Both the position numbers and the translations under genes were made by a program. The notes below the pieces were generated by a model. The model was given only the letters and a program-made list of their open reading frames with translations. It searched no databases and was not told the origin of the DNA. From Schmidtea nova (lineage: Eukaryota), in NCBI GenBank assembly GCA_044892505.1, contig CM097882.1, positions 184,202,001-184,266,000 of the forward strand: DNA of 64,000 nt, written 5' to 3'. Within the stretch, counting starts at the first letter, position 1. Every line of letters starts with the position of its first letter. Below are positions 13,555 through 39,156 of the stretch, piece by piece.

Positions 13555-14387
13555 TGTTGGGTTATTGGTGTTAAGTCGGTAGTTTCTGACTCCGGTGTTC
13601 TCTTTCAATTACAAAATAAACAAGACCCAACACAATAACTTTCTTTATTTGTCAATTGATCACAACTCTTTTTATCACAAAAAGTTACGCCGGTTCTGCA
13701 CTCTTCGCGTGAGGGTAGAACACCCAATGGGATATCTCCCTCTCTGACACGCAATAGATTAAGTATAAACTCTACTTTTGATTTTCTTTCGACGTCTCCT
13801 TCAAATGTCTTCTAACGATTTGCTTCACGTTGCCTACTTTTATTCTTCAATCGGTTGGCCTCGAAACTTTGACTTTGACCACATGGCGATATCGGCAATT
13901 TGCTCTCCGTTTATATACTATTTTTTTGTTGTCATCCTGTCGGCTTAATTGGATCTGGAGAAAATGAGATAATTAAATTTGTTTGACCGCCGCCTAATTG
14001 AGTTTCGCCGCTAATGGTTTTTCGTCTCTTCCCGGGGCATTAAATTTATTTCGATAATTAAATGATTTTGTTGATGCCCCGGGTTTCCCATAAGCTCGGG
14101 TTTCCCATTGGCTCGGGTTTTCCATTAGACGATTAATTATTTTTTAATTAATTTGTATTTTCTTAATTTATCTTTCTGGGGGTCCCATTTCAATTTTATA
14201 TACCCATATTTGAATTCGTCTCATCATTTGGCATCTTCCCATACCAGTTTCCCCCGCTCAAACTTTATTTTAATTTTTTTAATTAATTTTAAATTAATCT
14301 TTGAACATTAATTATTTTTAAAATTTTGTATTTTTATTGATTTGTGCAATTACAAATATAGTTTCTGTGATTTTCACAACCCCAACA
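13555..14387 (-). repeat. 3' LTR of element 1
   Basis: Direct repeat of 29365-30197. I noticed only one substitution by eye (14358 vs 30168). Confidence 0.96.
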
Positions 14388-14400
14388 TATCTCCCCTTTA
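14388..14400 (-). promoter_or_regulatory. Polypurine tract of element 1
   Basis: Minus strand TAAAGGGGAGATA abuts the TG start of the 3' LTR. Confidence 0.85.
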
Positions 14401-14718
14401 TTTTAAAGATTCGTCCTCGAATCTACATATACACATATTTTGATCATACATCCTGACAAGGATCATATAAAATTAATAGTGATGAAAATATCCCCACTAA
14501 TTGTAATAATAAGGATAATAATAATAATTACAATAATACTGGTGGTAATGACAATGACGTAAGTATAATAATGATGATGATAATAGTATCAGTAGTACCC
14601 ACCATACTGATAATAATGATAGTACTGATGTTTATAATAGTGATAATAACATTAGCAATATACTGATATTAATAATGATGATGATAACAACAATCCTGAT
14701 AATAATATCAACAATAGT

Positions 14719-17127: not shown

Positions 17128-18396
17128 TTAGTTCATTTTGATTTCCAGCCGCTTTGCCCCATTTCGATATCTGATAATTGTTTCTTCTTTTTCATACACC
17201 ACCCCGTTGATGGTCATTGTTTCCCCGACGTCGACGTTGGATGCTGAAGCTTTCCTTTTGCGATCTTCCTTTTGTTCCATTGGGCCATATTCCATCGATA
17301 ATTGGATTCTTGTTAATTTTGTGGATTCCATCCATTCGCAATTCTCTTCAATCTCCTCTAAATACATTTCAGTTGCCCATTTCAACTTTTGATTACTCTT
17401 TTCTGTTCCTGTATCTATTTCATCCACTTCCATGTTTGCCTCGTCTACGACCATTATCGTTCTTTCTGATCTGGGAATTTCAGATATCGATTCCATATGT
17501 TGCCTAGTTTTATACTCTTGCAATGAATACTTTTTTGATGGCCCTATCTTAGGCATTGATATATCATCGATCCAAAGGTTTTCTAGTCCCAAATATATCT
17601 TCCGAATGCTTTTGACGTCCTCTAAAGCTGAGTGAATACCCATTTGCATCTCTTCTCCATAGAGTTCCTTCATTATGGTTTTGAGCTTATACCATTCCCT
17701 TCTTCTTGTCACTCCTTTCAATTGCAACGCTTGAGCAGTAGCTAGATCCCGTATGCCATAAAGATGATTTACCCATATCCCTAGGAATTGTAATTCTGCA
17801 TGTAAGTCATGTCTTACGAGTATTTTCCCGATTGTCAGTTTTTGGATTTCCTTTATCTCTTCGTACTGGTCTTTTTGGTTTCGGCTCGCCACCTCCGTTA
17901 TTCCATGGATGTTTGAATTGAAATGTTTGAGTCTTCCTCTAGGTGTTAAGAAGACATTTTTCACAATTTTCCCGTGATAGTTCATAATGGCCACCGCCAA
18001 GGGCATCATCTTTCCAGTCATGCTGGTTCCATATTCGGCATCAATGAACAATATTTTGTTCCGAATTTCTTCTATACCCATTTCCTTCCGAATAAACGAC
18101 AATTTTCTTTTTAACATTTCCTTTGTTATTTGTAGGAGTTCAAGATTTTCTTTCTGCATTGGCTCCTCGCTGGGTACATCATCAATTTCGTTTTTGATCC
18201 TTGTTTCCACTACAATTGTGGCATCCTCGTTTGCTGCTCGTAATATTTTCCCGATTGCTGGCTCCTTGATTTTCCATGACGAAAGTTTTTTGATCTCCCA
18301 CCATATTTGATCATTTTCGTCTAGAATTTCCACCGTCCCTCTGATGACGTGGATATAGTATTCGTCTTTATCTGATATTTTTAGTTCCTTTGTCAT
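17128..18396 (-). CDS. DEDDh 3'-5' exonuclease (REX4/ISG20-like), accessory ORF of element 1, 422 aa
   Basis: ExoI ILFIDAEYG, ExoII KILVRHDLHAEL (Glu at the usual Asp position), ExoIII HSALED. Lies between the LTRs. Confidence 0.85.
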   Translation of the reverse strand: MTKELKISDKDEYYIHVIRGTVEILDENDQIWWEIKKLSSWKIKEPAIGKILRAANEDATIVVETRIKNEIDDVPSEEPMQKENLELLQITKEMLKRKLSFIRKEMGIEEIRNKILFIDAEYGTSMTGKMMPLAVAIMNYHGKIVKNVFLTPRGRLKHFNSNIHGITEVASRNQKDQYEEIKEIQKLTIGKILVRHDLHAELQFLGIWVNHLYGIRDLATAQALQLKGVTRRREWYKLKTIMKELYGEEMQMGIHSALEDVKSIRKIYLGLENLWIDDISMPKIGPSKKYSLQEYKTRQHMESISEIPRSERTIMVVDEANMEVDEIDTGTEKSNQKLKWATEMYLEEIEENCEWMESTKLTRIQLSMEYGPMEQKEDRKRKASASNVDVGETMTINGVVYEKEETIIRYRNGAKRLEIKMN

Positions 18397-18972: not shown

Positions 18973-21900
18973 CTATACAAACGTCTCCTCGTAATCGATC
19001 CAAGGTCTCGGGGCCTCGGATTGATTCGTAGAATGTCTTTCAGCTTTTCGAATTTCAAAGATGATGACAGATATGAGAATAATGACAAATATTGTTATAA
19101 TGATAATTGTTATTAATAATCTTACACATAGAAATTCATTTTCCGTAGGTGAAGCTGATATAGTTTTATTGCTTGGATTTAACACCTTGATGTGAGCGGT
19201 TGTGATTCGCGTTGATTGATTTAACTTCTGTGGGTAACTGTCCATCTCAGTATATGACACTCGAACAAATTTATCCTCTACCAAGGTTAATTGCCAAAGA
19301 TTGGAGTATTTGGCTCGCCGATAATACTTGATTTTTATTAGCACTATTTTAGAGTTTGATTTTGACCGTAGTTGTCGGAAAGATAAGATCTTTGATTCTT
19401 TTCTGTTCTCTAATATTCCTTGTACTTTTCCACAATAGTATAAAACAGCTCTTTGATTGGGGTACGTTTGACGGGTGACATTTATCGTCTGATTATACAC
19501 ATGAAAGATAACTCTGTTTGTTTCATTGATCAAGTTTATCGTGTGTTGACTGGAATGGATTAGAACCCACTGATCGGTGCTGTCTGTTCCATTTTCATAC
19601 AACGACTTTTCAAAATATTGTATTTGAATATTATACATCTGAAATAATTTTAAATTAACATATTTTATAAATGGTTTTCTGCTGTTCAGTGTATCGATAG
19701 CATGATTTTGAAAGACAGTTTTTACTTGCTGGGATTCATGAGAGTTCCAATATACATTAATTCCATTGATTACTGGTTCAATGGATACGCGGTCTTGTAG
19801 TCTTTTTGTCCATACATTGACACGTATTAGATCATGGACTCTTGTAAGATTATCTTTAAGATTTACTCGTGTTATTATCCAAGGGTATTTATAATTCATT
19901 GCTAATTCACGCGCGACATGTGTATTTTTGTTATAGTTTAATTTTACTGGGGGCTCGAAATAGTTCAGCAGATTATTTATCTCTATTTCTTCCGTCGCTT
20001 CGCAATAATAGATCCATACTATTTGGGTACATGTTGAATACACATCGATTTTTTCTAATAATGGGACTTTCTTCATTGCATATGCTGGGAATGTTCGTAT
20101 TGCCGACGCACACAAAATATTGATCATCATCACTGTTGTTATCAACAACGTTTTACTTAGGTAGTTTAATTGGGTGGGGTTTTTTGTAAATTTTTGTTTA
20201 ATTACTTTTTCTTTTTCGCCGTTACTTGGTTTTGACCTCAAGGGATATCTTTCTTCCAGCGGAACTTTCTTACATCGGTTTACATGAATGACAATCGTTC
20301 CCGCCTTTTTATTATTTTGTGGACGCAATTTTAAATTCGTCTCGGTTGTATCACACACCAAATAAGGTCCTTTAAATGGTCGCTGTAGTTTGGTAGACAG
20401 CCCTTTCGTTGGCTCTGGTTTATTTATGTACACCAAATCTCCAACTTTAATATCATGTGCATGCGCACGTTTATCATAGCATTCTTTATATGCTTCTTGA
20501 TTATGCCTTATTTTCAATCCCGCTTTGACCCATACTGATTGCAGTCTTTCCTGCATTACTACTTTGTAATCGGATACCTCCATGTATTGTGAGATTGGTG
20601 GTTGAAACTTTAAGTCAATCGGCATATTGTTTCGTCGTAGGTACATAAGATAAAATGGTGTTTCACCGGTGCTTTCATTCACTGCATTTCGATATGCAAA
20701 CAAACATGGCTTAATGAACAAATCCCAATCTTTTTGTTTCCTGTTTACATACGACGAAATCATGTTAATTAATGTTCCATTAAACCTTTCGACTAACCCA
20801 TCTGTTTGTGGGTGATATGGGGATGTATTAAGTTTTAGGATTCCGAATAATTCGGTTATAGATTTAAATAATTCGCTTTGAAAGTTTGTTCCTTGGTCTG
20901 TGAGCAATTTTCTTGGTGCTCCGTACCGAAATATGATGTTTTCTACAAATATTTTCGCAACAGTTTCTGCCTTTTGATTCTGCATTGCATATGCTTCCGG
21001 CCATTTTGTTAGGTAATCACAAAATACGATGATATATTTATTGCCATTGGTTGTTTCTGGTAGTGGACCAACAATATCCATTGCTGTCATTTCCATTGGT
21101 GCTACCGGCACGGTCATAGGTTTTAAAGGAACTTTTATTTTTCTTCCTGTATTTCGCCTGGTCAGACAAACTTCACAAGTGTGACACCATTGTCTGACGT
21201 CTTGCTCTATCGTATCCCAGTAATATTTCTGTTTTAATCTTGATAATGTTTTTCGAGCAGATAAATGTCCTCCCAATGCCCCATCATGATACAACAACAG
21301 TAATGCTGTTCGATGTTTTGCCGGTACTACTATTAATACGTTTTCATTTTTCACACATTTCAACAACCCCTCATGGAGGACGTATTTATGTTTTTCTTCC
21401 GCAATGTGCTTCCAGTCACTTTCTCTTTTTATTGTGACAGCATGTTTCCGCAATTGATTCAATTCAACATCGTTTTCCTGATCACCCTGTAATTCCTTCA
21501 TATTATTTGCCGTTTTAATTGCCATAAATATCGTATTTTCATAATTTACTTCATTTTGAATAATATTTTCTTCAGGGATTCTCGACATTGCGTCCGCATT
21601 TCCATTTGACTTCCCCGTACGGTACTTAATTTCGAAATCGTACTCTTGTAATGCAATTGACCACCTAATCAGCTTGCTTGCCGAATCTCGATGCTTCATT
21701 AACCATTGTAATGGGTTATGATCCGTAAATACAATAAACTTTCTCCCAACAAAATATTGTCGAAAATTAGTTTTAATTTCTTTTTCGATTGTGGAATAAT
21801 TTTTTTCATGCGGTTTTAATGAACGGCTTGCATAAGCGATTACGTGATCTTTCTCACCTTCTACTTGCTGTCCAAGTACTGCTCCTAATGCAAAATTGCT

Positions 21901-24900
21901 TGCATCAGTCATCAGTATAAATGGTTTTTTGAAGTTCGGACATCTCAATATTGGTTGTTTAATAAGACTCTCTTTTAATTTATCAAATGCTTCTTGTTGA
22001 GCTGTTGCCCATTTGAATTTAGTCTGCTTTTTTAGCAACATGTTTAAAGGTTGTGCTACATGCGAAAAATTCCTTATGAATTTCCTATAATAGCTCGCTA
22101 ATCCAAGAAATTGTCGGACTTGGTCCGCATCTTTGGGGATCGGATACTTTTTGATCTTTTCCACATTTTCTGATTTTGGTTGTAACCCTCTCCGTGAAAT
22201 TATGTGCCCTACGTAAACAACTTCTGATTTTCCCCATTCACATTTTGAAGGTTTTATTTTTAAATTGGCTTCTATTAGTCGTTTAAACACTATTTCCACA
22301 TCTTTTAAGTGTCCCTGAAAATTGTTTGAAAATATTATTATATCATCAATATAGACTAATGCATGTGGTATATCACGCAAAACAAAATTCATACCTCTCT
22401 GGAATGTAGCTGGTGCTCCCGTTAGACCGAATGGAAGCACATTAAACTCATATAGTCCTTTCCCATCTGAAAATGCCGTTTTTCTCCTGTCTTCCTCTTT
22501 GACTTTAAATTGGTTATATCCTTTGTTAAGATCGATTACTGTGAAGAATTGTACTTCTCCCATCTGATCAAACATTTCTTGAGGAACTGGTATAGGATAT
22601 GTGTCTTTTCTTGTCACTTGGTTTAATTTCCGATAATCAACACAAAATCGTAATTCACCGTCCTTCTTTTTCACTACCACTATTGACGATGAGAATGGTG
22701 ATGAACTATCTCTTATTATTTTGAATTCCTTCATGGCTTTAATTTGCCGATCGCTTTCTTCTTGATGTATATATGGAATTCTGTACGGTCGTATTTTTAT
22801 AGGAGTTTCATCAAGCAATGGTATTTCGTGTTCAATTATCTGAGTGAGTCCTAGATCATACTCATGTTTCGCGAATGCATTTTTATACCTTTTCAATAAT
22901 GCCGCAAATTCTTGTCTTTGTGCCTCTGTTAGATCATCACTTGTCACTTGTGGTTCTTTATAGATTTTGATATTTCTAGGTAGTTTTTGCACTTCTTCCC
23001 CTTTCAATTTTGACAGTTTTCCCAACTTTGTTTTGGGTTTCATCTGAACAGATTTTGTGCTACAATTAGCTATTCTTACTGGCACGGTTTTGTCTTTAAT
23101 TTTTACTATTTCGTCACACATAGGTACGTCGTACTTTTCTATTAGTTTTTGATTTGGTTCGAATATACACTCTTCTTCGGAAACATTTTCTACATTAGCG
23201 TAGTATATCACTTCGCTTTTTGGTGGTACTTCCAACGTTTGATTTAAAAAGACCTCTCCTGCTTCATGCACTACCTCATCAGTCTGCCTTTTTATTAATT
23301 TGCCCGTCTTTAAGTCCAGTGAGATTCCTTGTAATTGTTCCATGATATCCATGCCAATCAAACATTTGACAGGGCTTTTTCTCATTACTGATACCCAATG
23401 GATTACTTCCTGATTTCCTATATTCAACTTTACTTCTAGTTTTCCAATAATATTTAATACGTTATGCGTCATTGATTTAATAATTTTTGTTGTTGGCTTT
23501 ATTTTCGCTTTTTCCTGTCTCGTTAAGAAACTCTCCGATACTATACTGTGACTCGAGCCTGAATCCAATAACGCTTCCACTTTTCTTTCATTAAACTGTA
23601 TGGATATTCTAGGTTGTTTTCCTCCAATTTCTATTGTCATCAATGCGTAACTACATGGTAACTCAAGCATGTTCTTTCTTTCAATTTCGGCGCTTGATGG
23701 CTCAATCTTCTCTAGTTCGATTTTAATCTCATCAACTGGCTTCATTTCTCTCAACTTTTCACTTGGGTATATTGGAGCTGTTGGTATTAATGTCGGTGTA
23801 TACCATTTAGAAAGAGTGTCAATTCCTGTTAATTTTGGCATTGGTTCAAGCAAGAACCTGGTTTCGGGTTCTATTCTACTTTTCATTATGCTCCTTCGAA
23901 AATTATTTTGCTCTGATCTGCCGCCACCGTTCTCATTATCAGGACCATTATTTTTATCCTCATGATCGCATAGTGATTCTTCGCTTTTTTGATCATTTCT
24001 CAATTGCGCCCGTACATTTGCCATTTCTTTGTATTGATGACTTGTAATGAAGAATCTAGCCAAAAATGGAATACAACCAATTATCATTTTCCATGACCAT
24101 CCGGAAATTGTATATATCCTGTGAGTGGACAATACTTGTGATATTATCACCTTTACCGTTACTGCAATTACATAAATACCAATTAAACCTGCACAGGCTT
24201 GTCCCAAAAACATAAATTTTCCCCAAATCTTTTCCATTGTTTTGTAAGTAGCTCGTTTAAAATGATCAGGTGTCAGCAAGTATTCGTAGTTGACTTTCCC
24301 TTCTCCATTCGGCAATATGGTATCAATCATTTCTGAAATCACGCGTTCCTTTTTTGACGGAAATAACAAATTTCTTTGGGCTTCTTCGATGTCTTCGCTC
24401 GCATATAAACCCATTTGTGCCATTTTATTCATTGATGTAAAATTTATTAAGTATTCCAAATTCGTCAATTCCAATTTATCTGGTGTTCTTACTCCTCGGT
24501 AATCTGGTAGCGCTATCCATGAATCTTGTGCTAAGCGATATAATGGAGCTAATAATCGATTACATTGCAAAGTTTTTGGTTTAACTTGTTCCTCCAGCAG
24601 TATTCGGGTTATCGGTTCCATAAATCGTAGTTTCCCGCCAACACTTACTGGCAATTCATTTGTACATTTCTCATATTTTGCGATTTTCACTGTAATTTCT
24701 TTGCATCGGTAACTGTACAGCGCTTCTCCAAAGATTCTAGCAAATACACCATTTTCTGAAATTAGCATGGGTGCTACTAAATTCGGGTTTGTAACCGCCA
24801 TCGCCATTCGATTTCGAAGTATTTCTTTATTCAATTTACAATCGTTCAAGATCATTTCTCTATATATGTTCTCCATGGTATTTTGGCTAAAATGAAATAA

Positions 24901-27900
24901 ATAATCAATTTTATTATTAAAATAATGAGTTAGTTTTATATCATCCCTGTGAATTCTCGTCTTCGCTTCATGTACAGTCGTTTTTGCCACATATACTCCT
25001 TTGTAATTTGTTACATAGACTGTTTGACCACATTTGCTCGTAATCTCCTTTTTAATAAAGCGCATGCTGTCCGTTGGCAAGGTTGACATTAAAACCGTCG
25101 CTGTTTGTCTTGTCCACAGTGGAGTTGACCTTACTGTGCCATTTTGTTTATAATTCATATTAAAGTTGTCTGGTCTCTCCCTAAATTGCTCTCCGGTTAA
25201 CTCTTTGAAATTCATTGTTTTCAAATGACCCAGGTTACATATATTGGTTTTAACATCGTAAACGAGGATTGACTCTCCCGTGTGACAACTAGTTTGCTTC
25301 ATATTACAAAATGGGTGAGTTTGTAGTTTTCCGGTATCATCATCAAAAGATCCTTCGAACATTCTCAATTCGGTTAAGTATTCCTCTATTACCACTGTGT
25401 GTTTAATTATTTTCTCATTTATTTTATACGGTTCACCTTCACAGTCACCGTCTGATTTCATCACTCCCTTCACCACTAATGTTTCTCGAATTTGATGATT
25501 TAATTTCGCTTTTAATCGAATTTCAGGGCTGATTTTTAATTCCCCCGTTTGGAAGGCTGTTAAGCAATTTTCCGGCAATACATCCACCGGTCGTGGAATG
25601 GCGTGCATTTTGATTAATGACGTATGGCTCCATTTACCACAGAAGAATACAAAAGTGGTTCGTTTTACAATGCATTCTCTAACTTTGGTACGCCGTAAAT
25701 CTGACTCTTGATACACATGGTATTTTACTTCGTTTTCAATCTTTAATTTTCGAGGGTATGCGTCTGGGCACTCTGACATATCAACCACTGAGTAAATTTT
25801 CCCCATTTCGGTTTGTGAACAATCGTATGCCACCAATGACGTCGTTTGTGCAATAACTGCACATAGAATAATCATCATGAACATTATCCAAGGGAATATC
25901 ATCGTCTTCCTTAGTTTTAGACTTACTCTTCCGTTTAATTGCCTTTGCGGTGAATCATTTTCCGGTTTCTTTCTTTTCTTTATTATTGATAAATTTAATG
26001 TTTTCCACCCTCCACGCTCTCTCAGCCAATTAATTAAAGACTCATTTATTAGTCGAGCCGCAATGTCAATTAAATTATCAAGCTTGTCTGACTTTGTAAA
26101 TGCATGAATACCGATCTCTGAAACAACGTAGGTTAGAATTATTAGCACTACTTCTTTATCGATCCCATTTTCGATCAACTTTTCTATTACTTCACAGTTA
26201 CAAAAGCTATCCTCTTTGCCCAATTTCCGCACTACTCCTGGAAGTCTGATTTTCACTTCATCTACTATTCCTTTCAATTCCTCTTCCGTTTCTGTCTCTA
26301 TTTTTAGAATTGGGTATACGACTCCAACCAAATTTCTTATTACGTCACTTGTTTCTTCAACTTCCTGCTCTAATTTTACTAAGGTTTTCTTCATCTCATA
26401 CAATGTTCTAGTCTTCGTATTCGCACTTTTTATTTCACCTTTTTCGATATTCGTATCTTCAATAACTGCCATTTCTGCTGTCTGAGCATTATTATTAACC
26501 CTCTTTTCACCATTATAACCATCAGTAACTATTTCAATTTCGCTTTCCTTTATTTCTTCTGTTTGCTCATCTGTGTCTGAAAATTCAACTTTGTCAAGCA
26601 TCCTCGAATTATATTCTTTATTTGCGATTATGCGATTTATCAAATACCCCTGACTTCCATTAGTACTTAAATACCCATATTCATCCAGTTCCTGTGGCAC
26701 ACATCCGCAGTCATATAAATATTCATCGTCATCCAATTCTTCCCCTTTATATCTCAGCACTATAATTCCATCTTTACCTAACATTTCCGCAGCTCTTTTA
26801 CGCACTTTTCGAACTTTCGTACACCAGTGTTCCTCTACATACTCAGTTTTCCCAATATCTTCATATTCTATTGCAATTGTTAACGAATTTAACTCAACTC
26901 TATCTTTTCTAAGCTCTTTACCCAATTTTCTCATTATTCTCTTTAAACATTGTCTATATCCCGTTCTTCTAAACAAATAGGGTCGTATCGCATTAGCAAG
27001 TTCTAATTTTTCCTTTTGCCCAAATTCAGATTCCTCTATTAATTTTACTATTTCTTTAATTTCGTTTTCGTCACCAATACATAAAACATCATTTAGCTCC
27101 TTTACTATTTGCATCGGATCACTTCTTGTCATTTCACTGTTACTCATCATACTGGCTATTTGTAATTCATTTTTGTTCCCTGGTATAAGACCACAATCTA
27201 TTAAATATTCATCATTTTCTAAATCTCTATTTTTAAACTTTAATTCGACTACCCAGCCTTCACATTTCTCTCTTAGTCTCCTTTTTAAATCTTTTACGCG
27301 ATCATAGGCTTCACAACGACAAGTAATCACATTTTTATCATTTTCATTAACAACATCAATAGAAATAAAATCTAACCATTTATTTTCTCGAAACGCTTTC
27401 CCAAATTTTCTCATCAATTCTTTAATTTCTTCTCTATTTGTTACATTTATTTGATAATAATTAGCACACAAATTAATCGCGCCTTTCAATTTTCTCATAC
27501 TTAACGACATTTGACTCAGGCTTTTAACCGATACCAATATTTTAGATGATTCTTCCACGCTAGCTTCTAGTAATTTCTCAAGTCTTTTCATCATCATGGA
27601 AGCCTTTTCGCTTTCCAAATCGTCTTTTGTACACCCAGTTGTCGTGGCAGCTTCTGTCATGTCTTGCTGCGATCCATACATCATGTGATTATCCAATTCA
27701 TCATCAGATTCAAACTTGGACATTAAACGATCTAAACGTCGACCCATTTCTTTCACTTGGTTTTCAATCTTTTCATTGAAATCATCTGATTGAACAAAAG
27801 CCACGTTGTCTGTCTGCAGTTTATCATTTTGAAATCTTATTGATTTTTTCAATATAGGTTTCTGAAATTTGTCGACATTCCTCGGGCATGATCTAGCCAT

Positions 27901-29088
27901 GTGTCCATATCCTCTACATGAATGACATTGAATTTGACCTTGAAGGTTCACTCTATCTCTTTGTGGGGATGGCGAAGTTGATGGAGACCTCGATCTAGCA
28001 AAACAATTCCGAGAGACATGTCCTTTCCTTCCACAATTGTAACATTGCACATTATCGTTATTACGCTGATCGTTAAAATTTAGTTTATTAAAACTTTTCT
28101 CACCATTACCCTTCAACCAATCTGGCCACATTCGTTTTGGGCTTCGTTGAACGTTGTTTTTAGACCAGCATTGATTGATGTTATGTCCCATCCTTTGACA
28201 ATAATCACACTGAATTGGAGTTGGACTTTTTGGAGATCTATTTTTGAACCAACATTGATTAACATGATGTCCTATTCGTTGGCAATGGCTGCATTGAATT
28301 GGCCTCTCTTTTTCATCAATTTGAACATTTGTTGATTTATTTGGCTCAAATCTTTGTCTAAACGTTGGTGATGGACTAATTGATTGCTGAAGCCGATTGT
28401 TTCTGACTGGAGTTATGGACCGTTCTCTGGGTTCATTGATGATGGCAAACGATTCTGATTTTGGCTGTGAACTTTTCAGATTTAACTCAATTTTCATCGC
28501 CTTTTTGATTAACTCATCAAAGTTATTGAAGTCCACATAACATAATGCCTTTTTGATCTCCTTTTTGACTCCCGTTAAGAACTGGTCTTGTAGCAATTCT
28601 TTCACCTGCTTTGCCACTTCAATCTGTTCCGGCTTTACTTCGAATGCTTTCTCTGCAAGAGTAGTCAAGTGGTACGCAAATTCACTTACCGATTCCTCTG
28701 ATTTTTGCACTCGATTATAGAACTTCTGCCGCATTATCCGTTTTATATCCCCTCCAATTAGTTTCGCGGCTAAGGCATCTTTCAATTTCGTCCAGTCATT
28801 CGCAATTGTTCTTTTGTCAATTTGTTGCCAGGCTTCTCTCGCTGCTCCCTTTAGATATAGTGGCAATCTTTGCACCATTGTCGCTTGGCTCCATCCATAG
28901 GCTGTAGCGTACATGTAGTAATCCGCCATAAAATCAACGAATTCCCCTGGATCGCCTCCATACTGATTTACTGGCAGTTTCTGGCAGCTAGCATAGTCAT
29001 TGCCATTGCCGTTGCTGGTGGACATGTGCGTATCATCCTGATTGTTTGTATTACTCATTTTTGTTTCTGGTTGTTTATTACTTCTCAA
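18973..29088 (-). CDS. Single polyprotein: Gag(4 CCHC)-Ubl-Ubl-Bcl2-like-glycoprotein-PR-RT-RNaseH-IN-membrane tail (first ATG 29058)
   Basis: Uninterrupted 3371 codons. Four CX2CX4HX4C knuckles (about 27885-28295), LLDSGS, FCVDYRKLN, YIDDII, TDAS, HHCC, DIVGP/DQGTNF/ERFNGT and GPY. Internal signal peptide followed by AYDC. Confidence 0.93.
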   Translation of the reverse strand: MRSNKQPETKMSNTNNQDDTHMSTSNGNGNDYASCQKLPVNQYGGDPGEFVDFMADYYMYATAYGWSQATMVQRLPLYLKGAAREAWQQIDKRTIANDWTKLKDALAAKLIGGDIKRIMRQKFYNRVQKSEESVSEFAYHLTTLAEKAFEVKPEQIEVAKQVKELLQDQFLTGVKKEIKKALCYVDFNNFDELIKKAMKIELNLKSSQPKSESFAIINEPRERSITPVRNNRLQQSISPSPTFRQRFEPNKSTNVQIDEKERPIQCSHCQRIGHHVNQCWFKNRSPKSPTPIQCDYCQRMGHNINQCWSKNNVQRSPKRMWPDWLKGNGEKSFNKLNFNDQRNNDNVQCYNCGRKGHVSRNCFARSRSPSTSPSPQRDRVNLQGQIQCHSCRGYGHMARSCPRNVDKFQKPILKKSIRFQNDKLQTDNVAFVQSDDFNEKIENQVKEMGRRLDRLMSKFESDDELDNHMMYGSQQDMTEAATTTGCTKDDLESEKASMMMKRLEKLLEASVEESSKILVSVKSLSQMSLSMRKLKGAINLCANYYQINVTNREEIKELMRKFGKAFRENKWLDFISIDVVNENDKNVITCRCEAYDRVKDLKRRLREKCEGWVVELKFKNRDLENDEYLIDCGLIPGNKNELQIASMMSNSEMTRSDPMQIVKELNDVLCIGDENEIKEIVKLIEESEFGQKEKLELANAIRPYLFRRTGYRQCLKRIMRKLGKELRKDRVELNSLTIAIEYEDIGKTEYVEEHWCTKVRKVRKRAAEMLGKDGIIVLRYKGEELDDDEYLYDCGCVPQELDEYGYLSTNGSQGYLINRIIANKEYNSRMLDKVEFSDTDEQTEEIKESEIEIVTDGYNGEKRVNNNAQTAEMAVIEDTNIEKGEIKSANTKTRTLYEMKKTLVKLEQEVEETSDVIRNLVGVVYPILKIETETEEELKGIVDEVKIRLPGVVRKLGKEDSFCNCEVIEKLIENGIDKEVVLIILTYVVSEIGIHAFTKSDKLDNLIDIAARLINESLINWLRERGGWKTLNLSIIKKRKKPENDSPQRQLNGRVSLKLRKTMIFPWIMFMMIILCAVIAQTTSLVAYDCSQTEMGKIYSVVDMSECPDAYPRKLKIENEVKYHVYQESDLRRTKVRECIVKRTTFVFFCGKWSHTSLIKMHAIPRPVDVLPENCLTAFQTGELKISPEIRLKAKLNHQIRETLVVKGVMKSDGDCEGEPYKINEKIIKHTVVIEEYLTELRMFEGSFDDDTGKLQTHPFCNMKQTSCHTGESILVYDVKTNICNLGHLKTMNFKELTGEQFRERPDNFNMNYKQNGTVRSTPLWTRQTATVLMSTLPTDSMRFIKKEITSKCGQTVYVTNYKGVYVAKTTVHEAKTRIHRDDIKLTHYFNNKIDYLFHFSQNTMENIYREMILNDCKLNKEILRNRMAMAVTNPNLVAPMLISENGVFARIFGEALYSYRCKEITVKIAKYEKCTNELPVSVGGKLRFMEPITRILLEEQVKPKTLQCNRLLAPLYRLAQDSWIALPDYRGVRTPDKLELTNLEYLINFTSMNKMAQMGLYASEDIEEAQRNLLFPSKKERVISEMIDTILPNGEGKVNYEYLLTPDHFKRATYKTMEKIWGKFMFLGQACAGLIGIYVIAVTVKVIISQVLSTHRIYTISGWSWKMIIGCIPFLARFFITSHQYKEMANVRAQLRNDQKSEESLCDHEDKNNGPDNENGGGRSEQNNFRRSIMKSRIEPETRFLLEPMPKLTGIDTLSKWYTPTLIPTAPIYPSEKLREMKPVDEIKIELEKIEPSSAEIERKNMLELPCSYALMTIEIGGKQPRISIQFNERKVEALLDSGSSHSIVSESFLTRQEKAKIKPTTKIIKSMTHNVLNIIGKLEVKLNIGNQEVIHWVSVMRKSPVKCLIGMDIMEQLQGISLDLKTGKLIKRQTDEVVHEAGEVFLNQTLEVPPKSEVIYYANVENVSEEECIFEPNQKLIEKYDVPMCDEIVKIKDKTVPVRIANCSTKSVQMKPKTKLGKLSKLKGEEVQKLPRNIKIYKEPQVTSDDLTEAQRQEFAALLKRYKNAFAKHEYDLGLTQIIEHEIPLLDETPIKIRPYRIPYIHQEESDRQIKAMKEFKIIRDSSSPFSSSIVVVKKKDGELRFCVDYRKLNQVTRKDTYPIPVPQEMFDQMGEVQFFTVIDLNKGYNQFKVKEEDRRKTAFSDGKGLYEFNVLPFGLTGAPATFQRGMNFVLRDIPHALVYIDDIIIFSNNFQGHLKDVEIVFKRLIEANLKIKPSKCEWGKSEVVYVGHIISRRGLQPKSENVEKIKKYPIPKDADQVRQFLGLASYYRKFIRNFSHVAQPLNMLLKKQTKFKWATAQQEAFDKLKESLIKQPILRCPNFKKPFILMTDASNFALGAVLGQQVEGEKDHVIAYASRSLKPHEKNYSTIEKEIKTNFRQYFVGRKFIVFTDHNPLQWLMKHRDSASKLIRWSIALQEYDFEIKYRTGKSNGNADAMSRIPEENIIQNEVNYENTIFMAIKTANNMKELQGDQENDVELNQLRKHAVTIKRESDWKHIAEEKHKYVLHEGLLKCVKNENVLIVVPAKHRTALLLLYHDGALGGHLSARKTLSRLKQKYYWDTIEQDVRQWCHTCEVCLTRRNTGRKIKVPLKPMTVPVAPMEMTAMDIVGPLPETTNGNKYIIVFCDYLTKWPEAYAMQNQKAETVAKIFVENIIFRYGAPRKLLTDQGTNFQSELFKSITELFGILKLNTSPYHPQTDGLVERFNGTLINMISSYVNRKQKDWDLFIKPCLFAYRNAVNESTGETPFYLMYLRRNNMPIDLKFQPPISQYMEVSDYKVVMQERLQSVWVKAGLKIRHNQEAYKECYDKRAHAHDIKVGDLVYINKPEPTKGLSTKLQRPFKGPYLVCDTTETNLKLRPQNNKKAGTIVIHVNRCKKVPLEERYPLRSKPSNGEKEKVIKQKFTKNPTQLNYLSKTLLITTVMMINILCASAIRTFPAYAMKKVPLLEKIDVYSTCTQIVWIYYCEATEEIEINNLLNYFEPPVKLNYNKNTHVARELAMNYKYPWIITRVNLKDNLTRVHDLIRVNVWTKRLQDRVSIEPVINGINVYWNSHESQQVKTVFQNHAIDTLNSRKPFIKYVNLKLFQMYNIQIQYFEKSLYENGTDSTDQWVLIHSSQHTINLINETNRVIFHVYNQTINVTRQTYPNQRAVLYYCGKVQGILENRKESKILSFRQLRSKSNSKIVLIKIKYYRRAKYSNLWQLTLVEDKFVRVSYTEMDSYPQKLNQSTRITTAHIKVLNPSNKTISASPTENEFLCVRLLITIIIITIFVIILISVIIFEIRKAERHSTNQSEAPRPWIDYEETFV

Positions 29089-29340
29089 TTCGTAATATGT
29101 TCGGTTTGGTACAACTTTTTCTCTTCTAAATTTTAATATATCAATTATAAATTTTACCTTTTATTTTAATTTCAACAGTATAAATCTTTCCACAATTATC
29201 AACAAACTTTTATCAATCCTTGATTCGATTTACTGACTTTTTTCTTTTAATCAATTTCACAATTTCCAAACTTTTTAGCAACTTTTAATTTCTTTTTGCC
29301 AATAAATATTCGATTTCTTTTTGCAACGCTTCACCGACTT

Positions 29341-29360
29341 TGATCTCGTCGGGCTCACCA
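29341..29360 (-). promoter_or_regulatory. Primer binding site of element 1 (tRNA-Trp-like)
   Basis: TGGTGAGCCCGACGAGATCA, 4 nt inside the 5' LTR. It is complementary to a tRNA 3' end; the Trp identity is inferred. Confidence 0.75.
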
Positions 29361-29364
29361 AATA

Positions 29365-30197
29365 TGTTGGGTTATTGGTGTTAAGTCGGTAGTTTCTGAC
29401 TCCGGTGTTCTCTTTCAATTACAAAATAAACAAGACCCAACACAATAACTTTCTTTATTTGTCAATTGATCACAACTCTTTTTATCACAAAAAGTTACGC
29501 CGGTTCTGCACTCTTCGCGTGAGGGTAGAACACCCAATGGGATATCTCCCTCTCTGACACGCAATAGATTAAGTATAAACTCTACTTTTGATTTTCTTTC
29601 GACGTCTCCTTCAAATGTCTTCTAACGATTTGCTTCACGTTGCCTACTTTTATTCTTCAATCGGTTGGCCTCGAAACTTTGACTTTGACCACATGGCGAT
29701 ATCGGCAATTTGCTCTCCGTTTATATACTATTTTTTTGTTGTCATCCTGTCGGCTTAATTGGATCTGGAGAAAATGAGATAATTAAATTTGTTTGACCGC
29801 CGCCTAATTGAGTTTCGCCGCTAATGGTTTTTCGTCTCTTCCCGGGGCATTAAATTTATTTCGATAATTAAATGATTTTGTTGATGCCCCGGGTTTCCCA
29901 TAAGCTCGGGTTTCCCATTGGCTCGGGTTTTCCATTAGACGATTAATTATTTTTTAATTAATTTGTATTTTCTTAATTTATCTTTCTGGGGGTCCCATTT
30001 CAATTTTATATACCCATATTTGAATTCGTCTCATCATTTGGCATCTTCCCATACCAGTTTCCCCCGCTCAAACTTTATTTTAATTTTTTTAATTAATTTT
30101 AAATTAATCTTTGAACATTAATTATTTTTAAAATTTTGTATTTTTATTGATTTGTGCAATTACAAATTTAGTTTCTGTGATTTTCACAACCCCAACA
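29365..30197 (-). repeat. 5' LTR of element 1
   Basis: Near-identical to 13555-14387. Confidence 0.96.
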
Positions 30198-32379: not shown

Positions 32380-33407
32380 TTATTAATGTCTATGCGCTGT
32401 TCAAATTGAGTTTAGTTGTTTGTGTATATGAACGTTTACGAATGGGAAGAAGAGTTGTAGGACCCGAGAGAGTCAGCCCGATTGTTGTGGGGACACTCGG
32501 GGTGTATGCTGTGTATTGGTAGATTATAAGTGACACAATAAAATAATAAACAATGTGATAAATTAATTATTAACTATAACCAGATATTGTCAAATATACA
32601 ATTTTACAGAAGTTACTTTATAGAGTTTCGGAGATAATTAGGTAGTCGTCGACGAGGGAGATTGTAAGTTGGAAAACTATATGAACTTTGATAAATCTTC
32701 TGTATAAATAAAATTGGCTTGAATTTACAAAATATTTCAGAATAGGAAATTCAATGTCTTGGCTTTCTCTTTTCAGACTTCGTTTACAAAATATTTCAGA
32801 ATAGGAAATTCAATGTCTTGGCTTTCTCTTTTCAGACTTCGTTTACAAAATATTTCAGAATCGGAAATTCAATATCTTGGCTTTCTCTTCTCAGACTTCG
32901 TTTACAAAATATTTCAGAATAGGAAATTCAATATCTTGGCTTTCTCTTTTCAGTCTTCGTTTACAAAATATTTCAGAATAGGAAATTCAATATCTTGGCT
33001 TTCTCTTTTCAGTCTTCGTCTACAAAATATTTCAGAATCGGAAATTCAATATCTTGGCTTTCTCTTTTCAGTCTTCGTCTACAAAATATTTCAGAATCGG
33101 AAATTCAATGACTTGGCTTTCTCTTTTCAGTCTTCAGATGAATTATATTATTATTGCATAATTTTTTTAAAATCAATTTTTTATTAATTCTGAATTCAGC
33201 TTACTATAGTTTCCTATAGTAAGCTATTTGAATTCAGAATTTAAATTTTATAGTTTAAATTATTTAATTATTTAATTATTTTACAATAAATAAAAATAAA
33301 AAGGGGGGTTCCTGGTGACCGCGAGGGCACCGTCCATAGTAATGACGGCGCTTACAAACTCTTAAAAGAATAATTACATAAAATAAACATAAAACAAGAC
33401 ATCCACA
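32380..33407 (-). repeat. 3' LTR of element 2 (seven 59-bp units, 32724-33135)
   Basis: Direct repeat of 38162-39129. The 59-bp period was measured from coordinates. Confidence 0.92.
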
Positions 33408-33410
33408 TAA

Positions 33411-33420
33411 CTTCCCCCTT
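33411..33420 (-). promoter_or_regulatory. Polypurine tract of element 2
   Basis: AAGGGGGAAG just before the LTR start TGTGGATG. Confidence 0.85.
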
Positions 33421-33720
33421 TAAATCCGGAGGTTAACAAGAACATAAAAAAATAACATTAATATTTGCCTCGCATTTACAAATTACTTAAATTTTACCTA
33501 TTTACACAACCGGTAACTTAAAACTTTTTATTCTTTTTTTTTTTTTTTATTATGTTTTGTTTTTTTTGTTTTGTTTTGTTGGGTTACAATTTAACAACAT
33601 AAATTACATAATTACATAGAACATAAAAATCTGTAACTTTTACATCTTTACACAAAAAATAAAAACTGTACATTTCGCTGTGTTGTGCTTGTGTTTTGCT
33701 CGTGTATGTTTGAGTATTTT

Positions 33721-36700
33721 TTATTTGAGGCAATCGCTATAGCGTTTTTTGTAAAGGGGTGTGATTATGGTGTCCTTGTCGAACAGTTTTATTGAGTTTT
33801 TGGAGTTGAATGTGATGTGTTTGTGTTTTGTTTGAGTTTTTATTTCTGCCGGGGCTTTTTCTTTTGTTGGGTTGTTTGGGGTGTTTTGGTTGTTGTGGTA
33901 TGGCTTAATTCTTCTCAGATTGATTCTTATTTTGGTGTTATCTTTTATTATTGTTGCGACATTTTTATTAATTTCGAGCAATCTGAAAGGGCCTTCGTAT
34001 TTTGGTTCGAAACCTTTGGTGAAGGGCTTTTTTACTAATACGTAGTCTGTTGTCAGCACTACTTTTCCATCCATTTCAGAGTTAGCTCTTTTTTTAAGGA
34101 TTCCTTTTAATTTTTTTCCAGTTTTTTCGTTGTTTGTGTTGGTTTCCGCGTTTTCGGTTGTATTGTTTTTGATTGTTGGGAGATTTGCTTCTCTGCCGAA
34201 TACTTTGTATGCTGGGCTTTCGTTGTCAGTTGAGTTTGGCGTGTTTCTTAGCCCCAGTAAGATTGTCGGGAGTTGACTTAGCCAATTTCTGTCGTCTGCT
34301 TTGGTTCGGATACTTTCCTTTAGTGTTCTGTGCAATCTCTCGATTTTTCCATTTGCTTGAGGGTTGTAAGCTGTTGTGCGGTTTCTTTTGATGTTGTATT
34401 TGTTGCACAGAGTACTGAACAATTCTGATTCGAACTGTCTCCCTTGGTCTGTTATCAATACTTTTGGTTGACCGTAGCGAGCTATCCAATTTAGTTCGAG
34501 CTTGTTGCATATGTTCTGGGCTGATGTTTCCTTTAGCGGGATGATTTCGAACCAGTTAGTCTTCCTGTCGATGATTGTGAGTAGGTAGTTGTACCCGTTG
34601 TTTGGTGGTAACGGTCCTACTATGTCGATGTGAATCATCTCGAAAGGTTGACTGCTTGGAAAGTTTACTTTTTGTGTTGTTGGTTTCTTTGATATTTTGT
34701 TGATTTGGCAATCTTTGCATGTTTTTACGAAACTTTTGATTTCCTTTCTCATATTTGGCCATATGTATCTGTTGTGAATTATTTCGAAAGTGGCTTTGTT
34801 ACCTGGATGGCTGATGTCATGAATTTTCGAAATACACGATTTCCTAAACTCTTTTGGTAAGAGTATTCTTGGTGGGTTTTCGTTGCTGACGTCGTATCAA
34901 ACTTCATTGATTTTTTCTAATTTCAGGCTGTGTTTTAGCGGAAGTTCTTTTAAAGTTTCTGGTTGTTTGTTTTTAATTTTTTCGATTTCGAATAGTTCGC
35001 CAAATTCTAGTGCGTTTATGTCTGTTTCTATTCTTGACAGAGTGTCTGCTGCTATGTTTGCGGCGCCAGCGACATAGTTGATTGTGCAATTAAATTGTGA
35101 TATGTAATTTAATTGTCTTATTTGTCGTGGCGATGGGTTTTTCATTTGTATCGCGTTTGTTAACGGTTTGTGGTCCGTATATATTTTGAAATTTCTTGCT
35201 TCCAGTAAGTGTTGGAAGTGTTTGATGGCTTCATGTATCGCGAGTAGTTCTCGATCAAAAGTTGAGTATCGTGTTTGATGTATCTTTAGTTTTTTTGAGA
35301 AAAACCCGATTGGCTGTTTGCCGTATTCATTCTCTTGGTATAAGGTTGCGCCCATTGCATATCCAGAGCAGTCTGTTGCTAAGTTGTAGTCAAGTTCTGG
35401 ATTTGGATATCCGAGTAATGTTGCTCGGGATAAGCTTGTTTTTGCTTTTTCGAACTGTTTGGTAGTTTGTTCGGTCCAGTTTATTTTAATGTTTCTTCTT
35501 GTCTTGATCAGGTCGTTTAATGGAGCTAACAATTCACTACAGTTAGGGATGTACGCATGGTAAAAGTTTACCATCCCTAAGAATCGTCTTAGCTCTCTGT
35601 TTGTGTTCGGTAATCTGAACTCTTGTATCGTGCTTATTTTCTTGTCTATTGGTTTCGTGCCTTTTTCGTCCAGAGTGTGTCCCAGAAAATTAATCTCTTT
35701 TTTCAAAAATTCGCATTTTTGAATGTTTATTTTGAGATTTGCGGAGTTCAGCGTTTCAAACACCTTTTCGATGTCTTTTAAGTGAGTAGTTTTGTTTGGG
35801 CTTGCTATGAGGATGTCGTCCAAATATGCTATTGTGTTCTGGTTGTTTTTCAGCGTTTTGTCCATAAATCGTTGAAATGTTGCAGCTGCGTTTCGCAAAC
35901 CAAATGGCATTCTGTTGTACTCGAACATGCCGATTGGTGTTACGATTGGTGTTTTTTTTATATCCTCGTTCCTGATGGGTATTTGGTGGTAAGCCTTCTG
36001 TAAATCAATTTTCGAGAAGAGTTTGGCTCCTTTTAATCTGTTTATTATATCTCTGATGATAGGCAGTGGATAGTTGTCTGGTTCCGTGATTTTGTTGAGC
36101 ATTCGGTAGTCTCCACAAGCTCTCCATTCTCCGTTTGCCTTTTGTTTGAGCATGAGTGTTGAGGACCAATCAGAGTTCGAGTGAGTTACTATTTTGTTTT
36201 CTAGTAACTCCTTGAAAATTTCGTTCGTAATTTTTGTTTTTTGTGGATCTAGTTGTCTCACCTTTGCATGCACCGGGTTTCCGTTTGTTATGATTGCATG
36301 TTCGGTGGAGTGATCCGCGTTTTTGTCGAAAGTTACTGGTTCGGTGAGTTTTTCGAATTTTTCCAGTAGTTTATTTATTTCTGGGTCGTGATTCAGTTTT
36401 TGTTTTTGTCTATTGTTAGGTGTATCCGTTTGGATCACACCGATGTCTATTTTTGGCTTTCCTCCATTGTTTGTGGTGTGCTGTGGTGTTGTAGTATTAG
36501 TATTATTTTCTATTATTTGTTTGTTTTTACAATCCACTAGGAGGTTGTAATTTGTTAGGAAGTCTGCTCCTATTATCGCTTGTTGGACCTCAGCTATTGT
36601 GAATGTCCAGTTGTAAATTTTTTTGTTTATGTTTATATTTATTTTTTGTTGCCCGAAGGTTTTGATGTTTGTGCCGTTAGCTGCTGTTAATGGTTTTTCT

Positions 36701-36789
36701 GTTTTGTTGGCACTTTTATACATAGAATGGGGCAGTAGTGAGATCACCGAGCCGGTGTCTATTAAAAATTCTATGTTGTTGCTGTGCAC
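33721..36789 (-). pseudogene. pol (PR-RT-RH-IN) of element 2 with one in-frame TGA at 34897-34899
   Basis: LIDTGS, CGDYRMLN, YLDDIL, TDCS, HDISHPG..CKDC, HIDIVGP, TDQGRQFES, GPF. The reading frame continues past the TGA. Confidence 0.9.
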
Positions 36790-36839
36790 CCAAAATGTGT
36801 TGTTTTTGTCACCTGATGTGGGTGCTATAATTGGTGACT

Positions 36840-37970
36840 TTATTGGTTTCCCTGCTCTGTTTTATTGAATTCGCAGGGTTGTGTGCATTTGAATGCTTTT
36901 TCACCAAATTTGTTGTGGAAATAGCAAAGGTTTTTGTTTAGGTAATTGTTTCTTGGGTCTCTTTCTGGGCTTCTGTTTCGGTAATTGTTGCCTCGATTAG
37001 GGGAGTTTGACCGGTTTCTGTAATTGTTGTTCGGTGATTGACTGCGGCTGTAGTTTTGTCTGTTTTGACCGTCTGATGGCAGGTCTCTGTTGTAGTTATA
37101 TCTGTTGTAATTGTCGTATGATTGTGTTGAGTTGAAAGTCTGTTTATTACAACGTTCTTTTATTTCGGCTAATTCTGTTTTAATTTGTCTGTTTTCGACT
37201 ATGATTTCGTCGAATTTGCCAATTAGGGTGTTTAATAATTTGTTCATGTTGTCGTTTGTTTCGTTGTTTTTGTTGTATGCGGGATTATTGTAGTGCGGTT
37301 TGTTTTTGTTGTTGTTTTGGGTGCTGAATATAGTCGGATAGATTTCCTCGTTGATCTTATCCGCTATGTCGGCAAGCGTTTCCACGTCAGCGTTGTTGCT
37401 GGCTGCCAAAATCCTCCTGATTTCTGGTGGCATTGCTCGCATGAAAAATTCTTTGACCAGTTCGTTGGAGCCTGAATTTGTGATATTGGGTTGGAGGTAT
37501 TCTAATTTTTGCTTAAGTTGTCGGAGAAAATCTGTTGGTTTATTGTCGCCTAGTTGCGTGTTATTGAGGCATGACTCTAGCATTTGTCTCCTATTTATTT
37601 TGTTTTTATTCGTAAGGATGTTACACAGTTTGTTAAAGGGGTCCTCATCCTTAGAAATTTCTTCGATCTGATCCGCTATTTCATTTAGTTTGTTGCTGGG
37701 GAGTGCGGCTATAATGTTTGAGCATAGGGTTTTTGTGGATTTTATTCCTGACAATGTTAATGTTAATTTAGCAAATTCCAGCCATTTTTGTGGAGTGCCA
37801 TTTTCATCGGTGAAGTAGTTTGGTAGGTTGGGTTTCGGGTTGATTACAGAGTTTATGGTGTGTGTGTTTTCGGGGTTGTAATAGTAGTTGTTGTTTTGGT
37901 GTTGGGATTGTGCATTTTCGTTATCAATGGGTGTTTGTGAAATGTTTGGGTTTGCTTGGTTCGATGCCAT
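36840..37970 (-). CDS. Gag of element 2, 376 aa
   Basis: Open ORF upstream of pol with a C-terminal CHCC box. Confidence 0.9.
   Translation of the reverse strand: MASNQANPNISQTPIDNENAQSQHQNNNYYYNPENTHTINSVINPKPNLPNYFTDENGTPQKWLEFAKLTLTLSGIKSTKTLCSNIIAALPSNKLNEIADQIEEISKDEDPFNKLCNILTNKNKINRRQMLESCLNNTQLGDNKPTDFLRQLKQKLEYLQPNITNSGSNELVKEFFMRAMPPEIRRILAASNNADVETLADIADKINEEIYPTIFSTQNNNKNKPHYNNPAYNKNNETNDNMNKLLNTLIGKFDEIIVENRQIKTELAEIKERCNKQTFNSTQSYDNYNRYNYNRDLPSDGQNRQNYSRSQSPNNNYRNRSNSPNRGNNYRNRSPERDPRNNYLNKNLCYFHNKFGEKAFKCTQPCEFNKTEQGNQ
36846..36852 (-). promoter_or_regulatory. -1 ribosomal frameshift slippery site GGGAAAC
   Basis: G GGA AAC in the gag frame, two codons before the stop. The -1 frame is open into the protease (GKPIKSP...LIDTG). 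Confidence 0.8.
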
Positions 37971-38147
37971 TTAGTTTTGTTATTGTCGTTTGTTATGTTA
38001 CTTTTTTTTATGTTAAAAAAAATGAGCTTGACAAAAGGATATAGCCTACTGTGTTCGGCTAAAAGTAACGTTAATCCTTATACCTCTATAATAGGTATTC
38101 TAAAGGCGTTAACGCTTGAAAAAAACGGCGAGTGTGTGTGTGTGTTG

Positions 38148-38160
38148 ACTTCTGACACCA
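38148..38160 (-). promoter_or_regulatory. Primer binding site of element 2 (tRNA-Leu-like)
   Basis: TGGTGTCAGAAGT next to the 5' LTR. Confidence 0.8.
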
Positions 38161-38161
38161 G

Positions 38162-39125
38162 TTATTAATGTCTATGCGCTGTTCAAATTGAGTTTAGTTG
38201 TTTGTGTATATGAACGTTTACGAATGGGAAGAAGAGTTGTAGGACCCGAGAGAGTCAGCCCGATTGTTGTGGGGACACTCGGGGTGTATGCTGTGTATTG
38301 GTAGATTATAAGTGACACAATAAAATAATAAACAATGTGATAAATTAATTATTAACTATAACCAGATATTGTCAAATATACAATTTTACAAAAGTTACTT
38401 TATAGAGTTTCGGAGATAATTAGGTAGTCGTCGACGAGGGAGATTGTAAGTTGGAAAACTATATGAACTTTGATAAATCTTCTGTATAAATAAAATTGGC
38501 TTGAATTTACAAAATATTTCAGAATAGGAAATTCAATGTCTTGGCTTTCTCTTTTCAGACTTCGTTTACAAAATATTTCAGAATCGGAAATTCAATGTCT
38601 TGGCTTTCTCTTCTCAGACTTCGTTTACAAAATATTTCAGAATAGGAAATTCAATATCTTGGCTTTCTCTTTTCAGTCTTCGTTTACAAAATATTTCAGA
38701 ATAGGAAATTCAATATCTTGGCTTTCTCTTTTCAGTCTTCGTCTACAAAATATTTCAGAATCGGAAATTCAATATCTTGGCTTTCTCTTTTCAGTCTTCG
38801 TCTACAAAATATTTCAGAATCGGAAATTCAATGACTTGGCTTTCTCTTTTCAGTCTTCAGATGAATTATATTATTATTGCATAATTTTTTTAAAATCAAT
38901 TTTTTATTAATTCTGAATTCAGCTTACTATAGTTTCCTATAGTAAGCTATTTGAATTCAGAATTTAAATTTTATAGTTTAAATTATTTAATTATTTAATT
39001 ATTTTACAATAAATAAAAATAAAAAGGGGGTTCCTGGTGACCGCGAGGGCACCGTCCATAGTAATGACGGCGCTTACAAACTCTTAAAAGAATAATTACA
39101 TAAAATAAACATAAAACAAGACATC

Positions 39126-39129
<4 letters not shown>
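38162..39129 (-). repeat. 5' LTR of element 2 (six 59-bp units)
   Basis: Differs from the 3' LTR by one unit, one G in a G run and at least one substitution. Confidence 0.92.

Positions 39130-39156
<27 letters not shown>

Follow-up and report, generated by a model that had tools for sequence, protein, structure and literature searches.

The window (the whole stretch of 64,000 nucleotides that was analysed) held a young, high-copy Ty3/gypsy retrotransposon on the minus strand, 16,643 bp from LTR to LTR. When its two LTRs were compared with each other, 832 of 833 positions were identical (one mismatch), and the 4-bp target duplication AATG was present on both flanks. LTRs differing at a single base, together with the target duplication, indicate a recent insertion of 16.6 kb. 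No tRNA genes were found in the window. The features recognized in the element were:

29365..30197 (-), 5' LTR, 833 bp, with TG..CA ends
29343..29360 (-), putative primer-binding-site-like stretch, read from the sequence, starting with TGG, 4 nt inside the 5' LTR
18973..29058 (-), single polyprotein ORF, 3,361 aa from the first ATG (18973-29160 from stop to stop, 3,395 codons)
28624..28863 (-), Gag capsid part (Retrotrans_gag, PF03732, E=7e-7)
after the Gag capsid part (-), four CCHC knuckles (PF00098, E=6e-6; knuckles read off the translation)
27160..27399 (-), candidate ubiquitin-like domain 1 (PF11976, E=0.015)
26677..26916 (-), candidate ubiquitin-like domain 2 (alignment and profile of six element stretches)
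26371..26409 (-), predicted additional helix a0 in front of the Bcl-2 fold (model 2, helix 2-14, pLDDT about 45)
about 25993..26355 (-), predicted Bcl-2-fold core, helices a1-a8 (Pfam, profile, models and structural searches)
26242..26280 (-), helix a2, the degenerate BH3-equivalent position (start of the PF00452 match; helix in model 2)
26128..26181 (-), degenerate BH1, KLIENGIDKEVVLIILTY, with DKEV replacing NWGR (aa 994-1011, stop-to-stop numbering)
26005..26028 (-), BH2 motif WLRERGGW (aa 1045-1052, stop-to-stop numbering)
25849..25905 (-), internal Env signal peptide and predicted tail anchor of the Bcl-2 domain (hydropathy 2.45)
23947..25884 (-), Env, a Monjiviricetes-type fusion glycoprotein (PF24664, E=8e-88, aa 1093-1738)
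24142-24198 (-), Env membrane stretch
23326..23619 (-), aspartic protease (PF00077, E=2e-6)
22948..23268 (-), conserved segment between PR and RT, where Burro has a dUTPase-like motif
20809..22674 (-), RT, RNase H and integrase in Ty3/gypsy order (PF00078, PF17917, PF17921, PF00665)
18973..20154 (-), C-terminal second membrane protein (signal-like stretch, seven N-glycosylation sequons, membrane stretch 19060-19116)
17128..18396 (-), ORF2, RNase T/DEDD-type exonuclease-like (PF00929, E=8e-7)
~14388-14402 (-), polypurine tract, preceding the 3' LTR
13555..14387 (-), 3' LTR, 833 bp

A second, ordinary gypsy-type element lay at 32380-39131 (-) of the window, its terminal repeats holding arrays of a 59-bp unit.

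The genome of the host (1.25 Gb) was searched with the Bcl-2-like domain of the element. The best 150 of 1,771 candidates were scored and had 62-100% identity to this domain, and 19 of these 150 copies (counted by eye) lay in stop-free frames of 3,401 codons. The window ORF, with 3,395 codons, is six codons shorter than this, the commonest open-frame length of the family.

The polyprotein is ordered as Gag, two ubiquitin-like domains, the Bcl-2-like domain, a signal peptide, a mononegavirus-type fusion glycoprotein and PR-RT-RH-IN. The second membrane protein follows the integrase in the same polyprotein, and the exonuclease-like ORF2 lies downstream. The ubiquitin-like assignment is weakly to moderately indicated by the sequence. 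A profile of the six element stretches matched FAT10, ISG15 and ubiquitin (best E=8e-5); domain 2 by itself gave no Pfam ubiquitin match, and a C-terminal di-glycine was not seen. The segment between PR and RT was 30-32% identical across four families and had no PDB or Pfam match, including for dUTPase. The second membrane protein, predicted to be type I, had no Pfam family at E<0.01.

Four further families with the same domain order, named B, C, D and E, were recovered by genome searches with PF00452, one family-C domain and PF24664. Family E is the sister of the window's family A. One ubiquitin-like domain was recognized in B, C and D, and two in A and E. A shorter counterpart of the second membrane protein occurred in B, C and D. 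These three families also had a downstream ORF resembling ORF2 by eye (L071, L072, L106, L107); the PF00929 match was absent from the two such ORFs scanned.

The segment between the ubiquitin-like domains and Env is almost certainly a divergent Bcl-2-family homologue with a Bcl-2 fold. A preliminary description of the window had read WLRERGGW as a BH2 motif, and this held: the motif is on the minus strand, in frame, and aligned with the host Bcl-2 stretches. A loose form of it (W-x4-GGW, a pattern picked post hoc, once the motif was known) turned up a single time when all six frames of the window were scanned; of 20,000 shuffled versions of the polyprotein, 4 contained it. The proposal of a degenerate BH1, KLIENGIDKEVVLIILTY, at a suitable spacing was borne out as well, with D-K-E-V sitting on N-W-G-R both in an alignment with 11 host Bcl-2 stretches and in a profile alignment to solved Bcl-2. 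As had also been described, these motifs lie just before the glycoprotein signal, here the hydrophobic stretch at 25849-25905, after which the PF24664 glycoprotein follows.

The PF00452 profile gave a divided answer for the window copy. The match extended over nearly the whole profile (positions 7-100 of 100), with E=2.5e-4 and 1.2e-4; the score, 22-22.9 bits, stayed under the curated cut-off (31.4). Scores above it, 33.6-34.9 bits, were reached by copies from families B and C, and seven of eight aligned element domains were matched (best E=2e-8). Of the 60 rows listed for a profile built from these eight domains, 58 were matches to Bcl-2, Bcl-xL and Bax (E 7e-8 to 1e-6); the top two were designed helical repeat proteins. 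With the single sequence as PDB query, the best Bcl-2-family matches were Bax (E=0.005) and Bok (E=0.058). The top ESM Atlas matches were BCL2L15/BID (0.92) and, for family C, Bcl-2 (0.92), a weak recognition under the mark set by the tool. Public protein searches found no relatives; a search of representatives gave one repeat protein, which was unrelated. This is weak evidence of absence.

The preliminary description would have been contradicted by an unrelated fold, and structure prediction with structural search gave a Bcl-2 fold. Model 1, built from 14 element sequences only, had a pLDDT of 44; ranks 1-27 of 48,161 chains in its structural search were Bcl-2 folds, with Z up to 8.5. Model 2 is partly circular, having 11 host Bcl-2 rows added to its alignment, and reached a pLDDT of 66 and a pTM of 0.59; its ranks 1-30 of 48,161 were Bcl-2 folds (Z up to 10.3, rmsd 2.7 over 107 residues). 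The Z values of both models are below the caution level of the tool for helical bundles. With Foldseek the best E was 0.19 for model 1 and 0.021 for model 2, neither reaching 0.001, and every row listed for model 1 was of the Bcl-2 family, none significant. The structural match covered about aa 936-1056, leaving helix a0 mostly outside the alignments. We thus predict, with moderate confidence, a Bcl-2 fold in which a helical bundle surrounds a central hydrophobic a5.

The description had further proposed that the module was captured. In a tree, one branch (support 93/94, not starred) split 15 element rows from 11 host rows, in keeping with this proposal, and a single capture from a host gene is likely on the sequence comparisons. 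Among host paralogs, the L036/L038/L050 type gave the best profile score, by small margins; L042, L056 and L059 were not covered by this scoring. These six loci form an expanded, divergent host-type Bcl-2 group, some of them with stops. An intron donor lay right behind GGW in 6 of 11 host stretches and not in the other five. The elements read through this site, which fits capture from an mRNA without proving it.

None of the five families kept the canonical BH1, NWGR, in the copies examined. Family A had DKEV in 29 of 30 copies (one unmatched), family B DKDK (15/15), family C NRDR (23/30), NQDR (5/30), NRVR (1/30) or NWDR (1/30), family D DENR or DKNR (5/5), and family E NREV (seven stretches). 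We rejected the family-C NWDR (L068) as a bridge to NWGR or a remnant of an ancestral Trp, since it occurred in one copy of 30 and is one base away from the common NRDR. BH2 was kept as WLRERGGW in 30/30 near-identical family-A copies, picked for likeness in this domain. In one family-A subfamily (L061-L063), the first Trp of BH2, equivalent to W188, was replaced by Arg or Gly in all three copies read, with the frame open.

According to the passage on these mutants in PMC6825947 (citing PMID 8183370), each of W144A, G145E, R146A and W188A abolishes binding of Bax by Bcl-2. At the places of W144, G145 and R146, the window domain carries Lys, Glu and Val. With these residues replaced, canonical BH3 sequestration is unlikely. 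The suggestion that the groove had been altered thus gained weight, from BH1 loss in all five families and from Glu at the G145 place. When a complex between the domain and a host Bak-like BH3 stretch was predicted (L148, assumed to belong to the L035 gene), the score was 0.01, which speaks neither for nor against binding. The anti-apoptotic function that the preliminary description gave the module is plausible at most, and would call for a remodelled groove. A pro-survival role is still compatible with BH1 loss, given the precedent of M11L, N1L and F1L: in the part of PMC3847314 that treats them, these proteins are without BH motifs, and M11L binds the Bak BH3 without the Asp-Arg salt bridge. 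Helix a2 of the window copy, at the BH3 position, kept the hydrophobic spacing and the Asp, with the Gly replaced; the Asp was absent from most related copies. Helix a0 was BH3-like in families B, C and D, without the BH3 Asp, and 23 of 30 family-C copies shared one common form of it.

Between the families, the Bcl-2 domain diverged faster than the other folded domains compared. From C to D its identity was 46%, against 90% for Env, 95% for RT and 75% for the ubiquitin-like domain. From A to E, with synonymous sites saturated, it was 49%, against 36-42% for the linkers, 85% for Env and 94% for RT. Conservation over six non-independent copies was lowest in the groove helices a3/a4 (54-56%) and highest in a5 (80%). 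Across families only 19-46% identical, the domain kept its length and helix pattern, as well as GGW and the Gly-Ile that precedes BH1.

We estimated dN/dS by simple pairwise counts, in which the copies are non-independent and decayed copies inflate the ratio. Against two diverged A subfamilies the domain had 0.18 (0.09-0.31) and 0.36 (0.19-0.62), both intervals excluding 1. Against the three closest diverged copies it had 0.57-0.78, with intervals including 1 and values not below those of the acidic linker. Four family-C comparisons gave 0.25-0.33. Env had 0.04-0.32. Among variants common to several of 30 family-C copies, the core had 14 non-synonymous and 12 synonymous, and Env 9 and 40. By these counts, selection on the domain is purifying but weak. 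Its fast divergence fits either host-driven change or relaxed constraint.

Cellular Bcl-2 proteins are tail-anchored and face the cytosol. In the element, a hydrophobic stretch lies 33 residues past BH2, and an equivalent one precedes the start of Env in all five families. As the signal peptide of Env, this stretch would thread Env into the ER, and signal peptidase would cut behind it. After cleavage, the Gag-Ubl-Bcl2 part would stay anchored in the ER by its C-terminus with the N-terminus in the cytosol, like cellular Bcl-2 proteins, and the Env membrane stretch would bring PR-RT-IN back to the cytosol. An ER-anchored Bcl-2 piece might then be released by the element protease, or might line the particle envelope. 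By damping the death signals that fusion, integration or the load of folding Env set off, it could keep element-making cells alive, and it might act by a remodelled groove, as in divergent poxviral Bcl-2 proteins. As a whole, this mechanism, by which a captured, tail-anchored Bcl-2 domain would serve as a pro-survival host modulator via a remodelled groove, is our tentative best explanation, plausible by analogy. An extended form of it is quite unlikely in our judgement: Burro-like elements would be endogenous viruses with an envelope, one hydrophobic stretch would be Env signal peptide, Gag tether and Bcl-2 tail anchor at once, the Bcl-2 mimic, fast-evolving and with a non-canonical groove, would be packed in the particle and delivered to the next cell, and the BH3-like helix a0 would be a protease-released switch.

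Alternatively, though this seems somewhat doubtful, the Bcl-2 fold may have a closed groove and bind other host proteins, in innate-immune or stress signalling, autophagy or ER calcium, as vaccinia A52 and B14 might suggest. In the relevant part of PMC3847314, these two have a Bcl-2 fold with a closed groove, inhibit NF-kB and are without a membrane anchor. Several observations agree with such a modulator that does not bind BH3: the BH1 W, G and mostly R are gone in all five families, the groove glycine is replaced by an acidic or bulky residue, the domain diverges fast with dN/dS below 1, its neighbours are tandem ubiquitin-like domains, and BCL2L15 was the top ESM Atlas match. The A52/B14 precedent, as far as that part of PMC3847314 describes it, also speaks for it. 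However, the element domain precedes a membrane anchor, A52 and B14 were low among the fold matches (Z 5-6, model 2), and BH2 is well kept.

We regard it as unlikely that the domain has no host-directed function and is a matrix-like structural spacer, holding Gag at the membrane beside Env, or a slowly decaying relic. It is placed between Gag and the only membrane anchor of Gag, several comparisons put its constraint near the level of the flanking linkers, the BH2 Trp was lost in one A subfamily, and the family-C variants (14/12 in the core, 9/40 in Env) point the same way. Against this, its length, helix pattern, Gly-Ile and GGW persisted across families of 19-46% identity, the core helix a5 was best conserved, and the deeper dN/dS intervals exclude 1.

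A pro-apoptotic or membrane-permeabilising domain, Bok/Bax-like or acting via helix a0 and aiding particle exit, is improbable. Bax and Bok were its best single-sequence matches within the Bcl-2 family in the PDB, helix a0 is conserved as a BH3-like helix in B, C and D, and the predicted ER anchor recalls Bok, which is ER-anchored. Yet helix a0 is without the BH3 Asp, the effectors Bax and Bak need BH1 too, and an integrating element gains little by killing its carrier cell. A chance likeness of an amphipathic helical stretch to Bcl-2 is highly improbable: the Pfam score of the window copy was sub-threshold and designed helical repeats outranked Bcl-2 in sequence searches, but sister families scored above the Pfam cut-off, the fold searches were concordant, and Burro has been given the same assignment in print (PMC6431247).

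The domain arrangement itself is already known from Burro, so the statement in the preliminary description that no Bcl-2 mimic was known in LTR elements does not stand: in this planarian element, a BCL2-like motif has been described immediately ahead of a mononegavirus-like env that is in frame (PMC6431247). The name Burro, or GYPSM1, covers giant planarian elements of the Ty3/gypsy type (Jurka 2007; Grohme 2018; Arkhipova and Yushenova 2019, PMC6431247). They encode Gag, a Ubi2/SUMO-like and a BCL2-like motif, env in frame between gag and pol, and PR-RT-RH-IN; the env matches mononegavirus fusion glycoproteins, and a dUTPase-like motif lies between PR and RT (PMC6431247). The BCL2-like motif was credited there to Grohme 2018 and its role left as an open question (PMC6431247). 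Burro transcripts are under PIWI control according to the portion of PMC8532177 consulted, and Burro is also named in a passage of PMC13238120.

The window element shares with Burro the LTRs, the PR-RT-RH-IN order, the ubiquitin-like and then BCL2-like domain ahead of an in-frame env, and a very high copy number. It differs in size (16.6 kb and 3,361 aa, against >30 kb and 4,873-5,140 aa in Burro) and has two ubiquitin-like domains, four zinc knuckles and the exonuclease-like ORF2. MATH, BIR and ankyrin, the Burro cargo, gave no Pfam match in the polyprotein, ORF2 or families B, C and D. With the Burro architecture present, and the size and the BIR/MATH/ankyrin features absent, we consider the element a compact Burro-like family and not Burro1. 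By its architecture, the host would be a planarian. This comparison with Burro1-4 is by architecture and published descriptions, not by sequence; no Burro sequences turned up in the public protein searches.

In a separate high-copy element of the same genome (L139-L142, L143-L145), direct repeats enclosed about 24 kb, with ORFs for protease+ankyrin, TRAF-zinc+MATH and BIR. Neither of the two copies read had an RT, Env or Bcl-2 match. This is Burro1-type cargo on a seemingly non-autonomous element. In a BIR search of the genome, the best 150 of 1,295 candidates were scored, most in 399-aa frames. Among two BIR neighbourhoods and seven loci of the Env search, all from the best-scoring candidates, none was an autonomous giant element that combined BIR with Bcl-2.

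Like cellular Bcl-2, Bcl-xL, Bax, Bak and Bok, the element domain has a helical bundle, BH2, the BH1-BH2 spacing and a predicted C-terminal anchor. Unlike them, it is part of a polyprotein, with no NWGR, a degenerate BH3, an extra BH3-like helix, and the Env signal peptide as its predicted anchor. With viral Bcl-2 proteins (M11L, F1L, N1L; A52, B14; GIV66, KsBcl-2, A179L) it shares a captured fold and eroded BH motifs. KsBcl-2, GIV66 and A179L were the top structural matches of model 2 (Z 10.1-10.3), tied with cellular ones. Each of the viral proteins has a gene of its own in a large DNA virus, and its function has been tested, whereas here we have a predicted domain of a retroelement polyprotein. 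The captured BIR/RING region of Burro1 protects planarian stem cells from apoptosis (Lee et al. 2026, as cited in the section of PMC13465017 on it). This B-IAP is, by that account, likewise apoptosis-regulator cargo in a planarian LTR element; it is a BIR/RING region acting at caspases, not a Bcl-2 fold, and is absent from the window element.

In the literature searched, which lay outside Grohme 2018, Lee 2026 and the supplements, we found no functional test of the Burro BCL2-like domain, and no report of BH1 loss in all families, of the fast evolution, of the signal-peptide-as-anchor topology or of the extra BH3-like helix.

Apoptosis-regulator cargo is rare in retroelements. As five compact, recently active families carry the Bcl-2 domain and have no BIR, MATH or ankyrin, the role of this domain can be studied in isolation. 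How far a Bcl-2 groove can drift is illustrated by the natural BH1 series, NRDR, DENR, DKDK, NREV and DKEV. A pro-survival domain would mean that planarian retroelements use two captured brakes on cell death, each independent of the other; otherwise, the domain would represent reuse of the Bcl-2 fold outside large DNA viruses.
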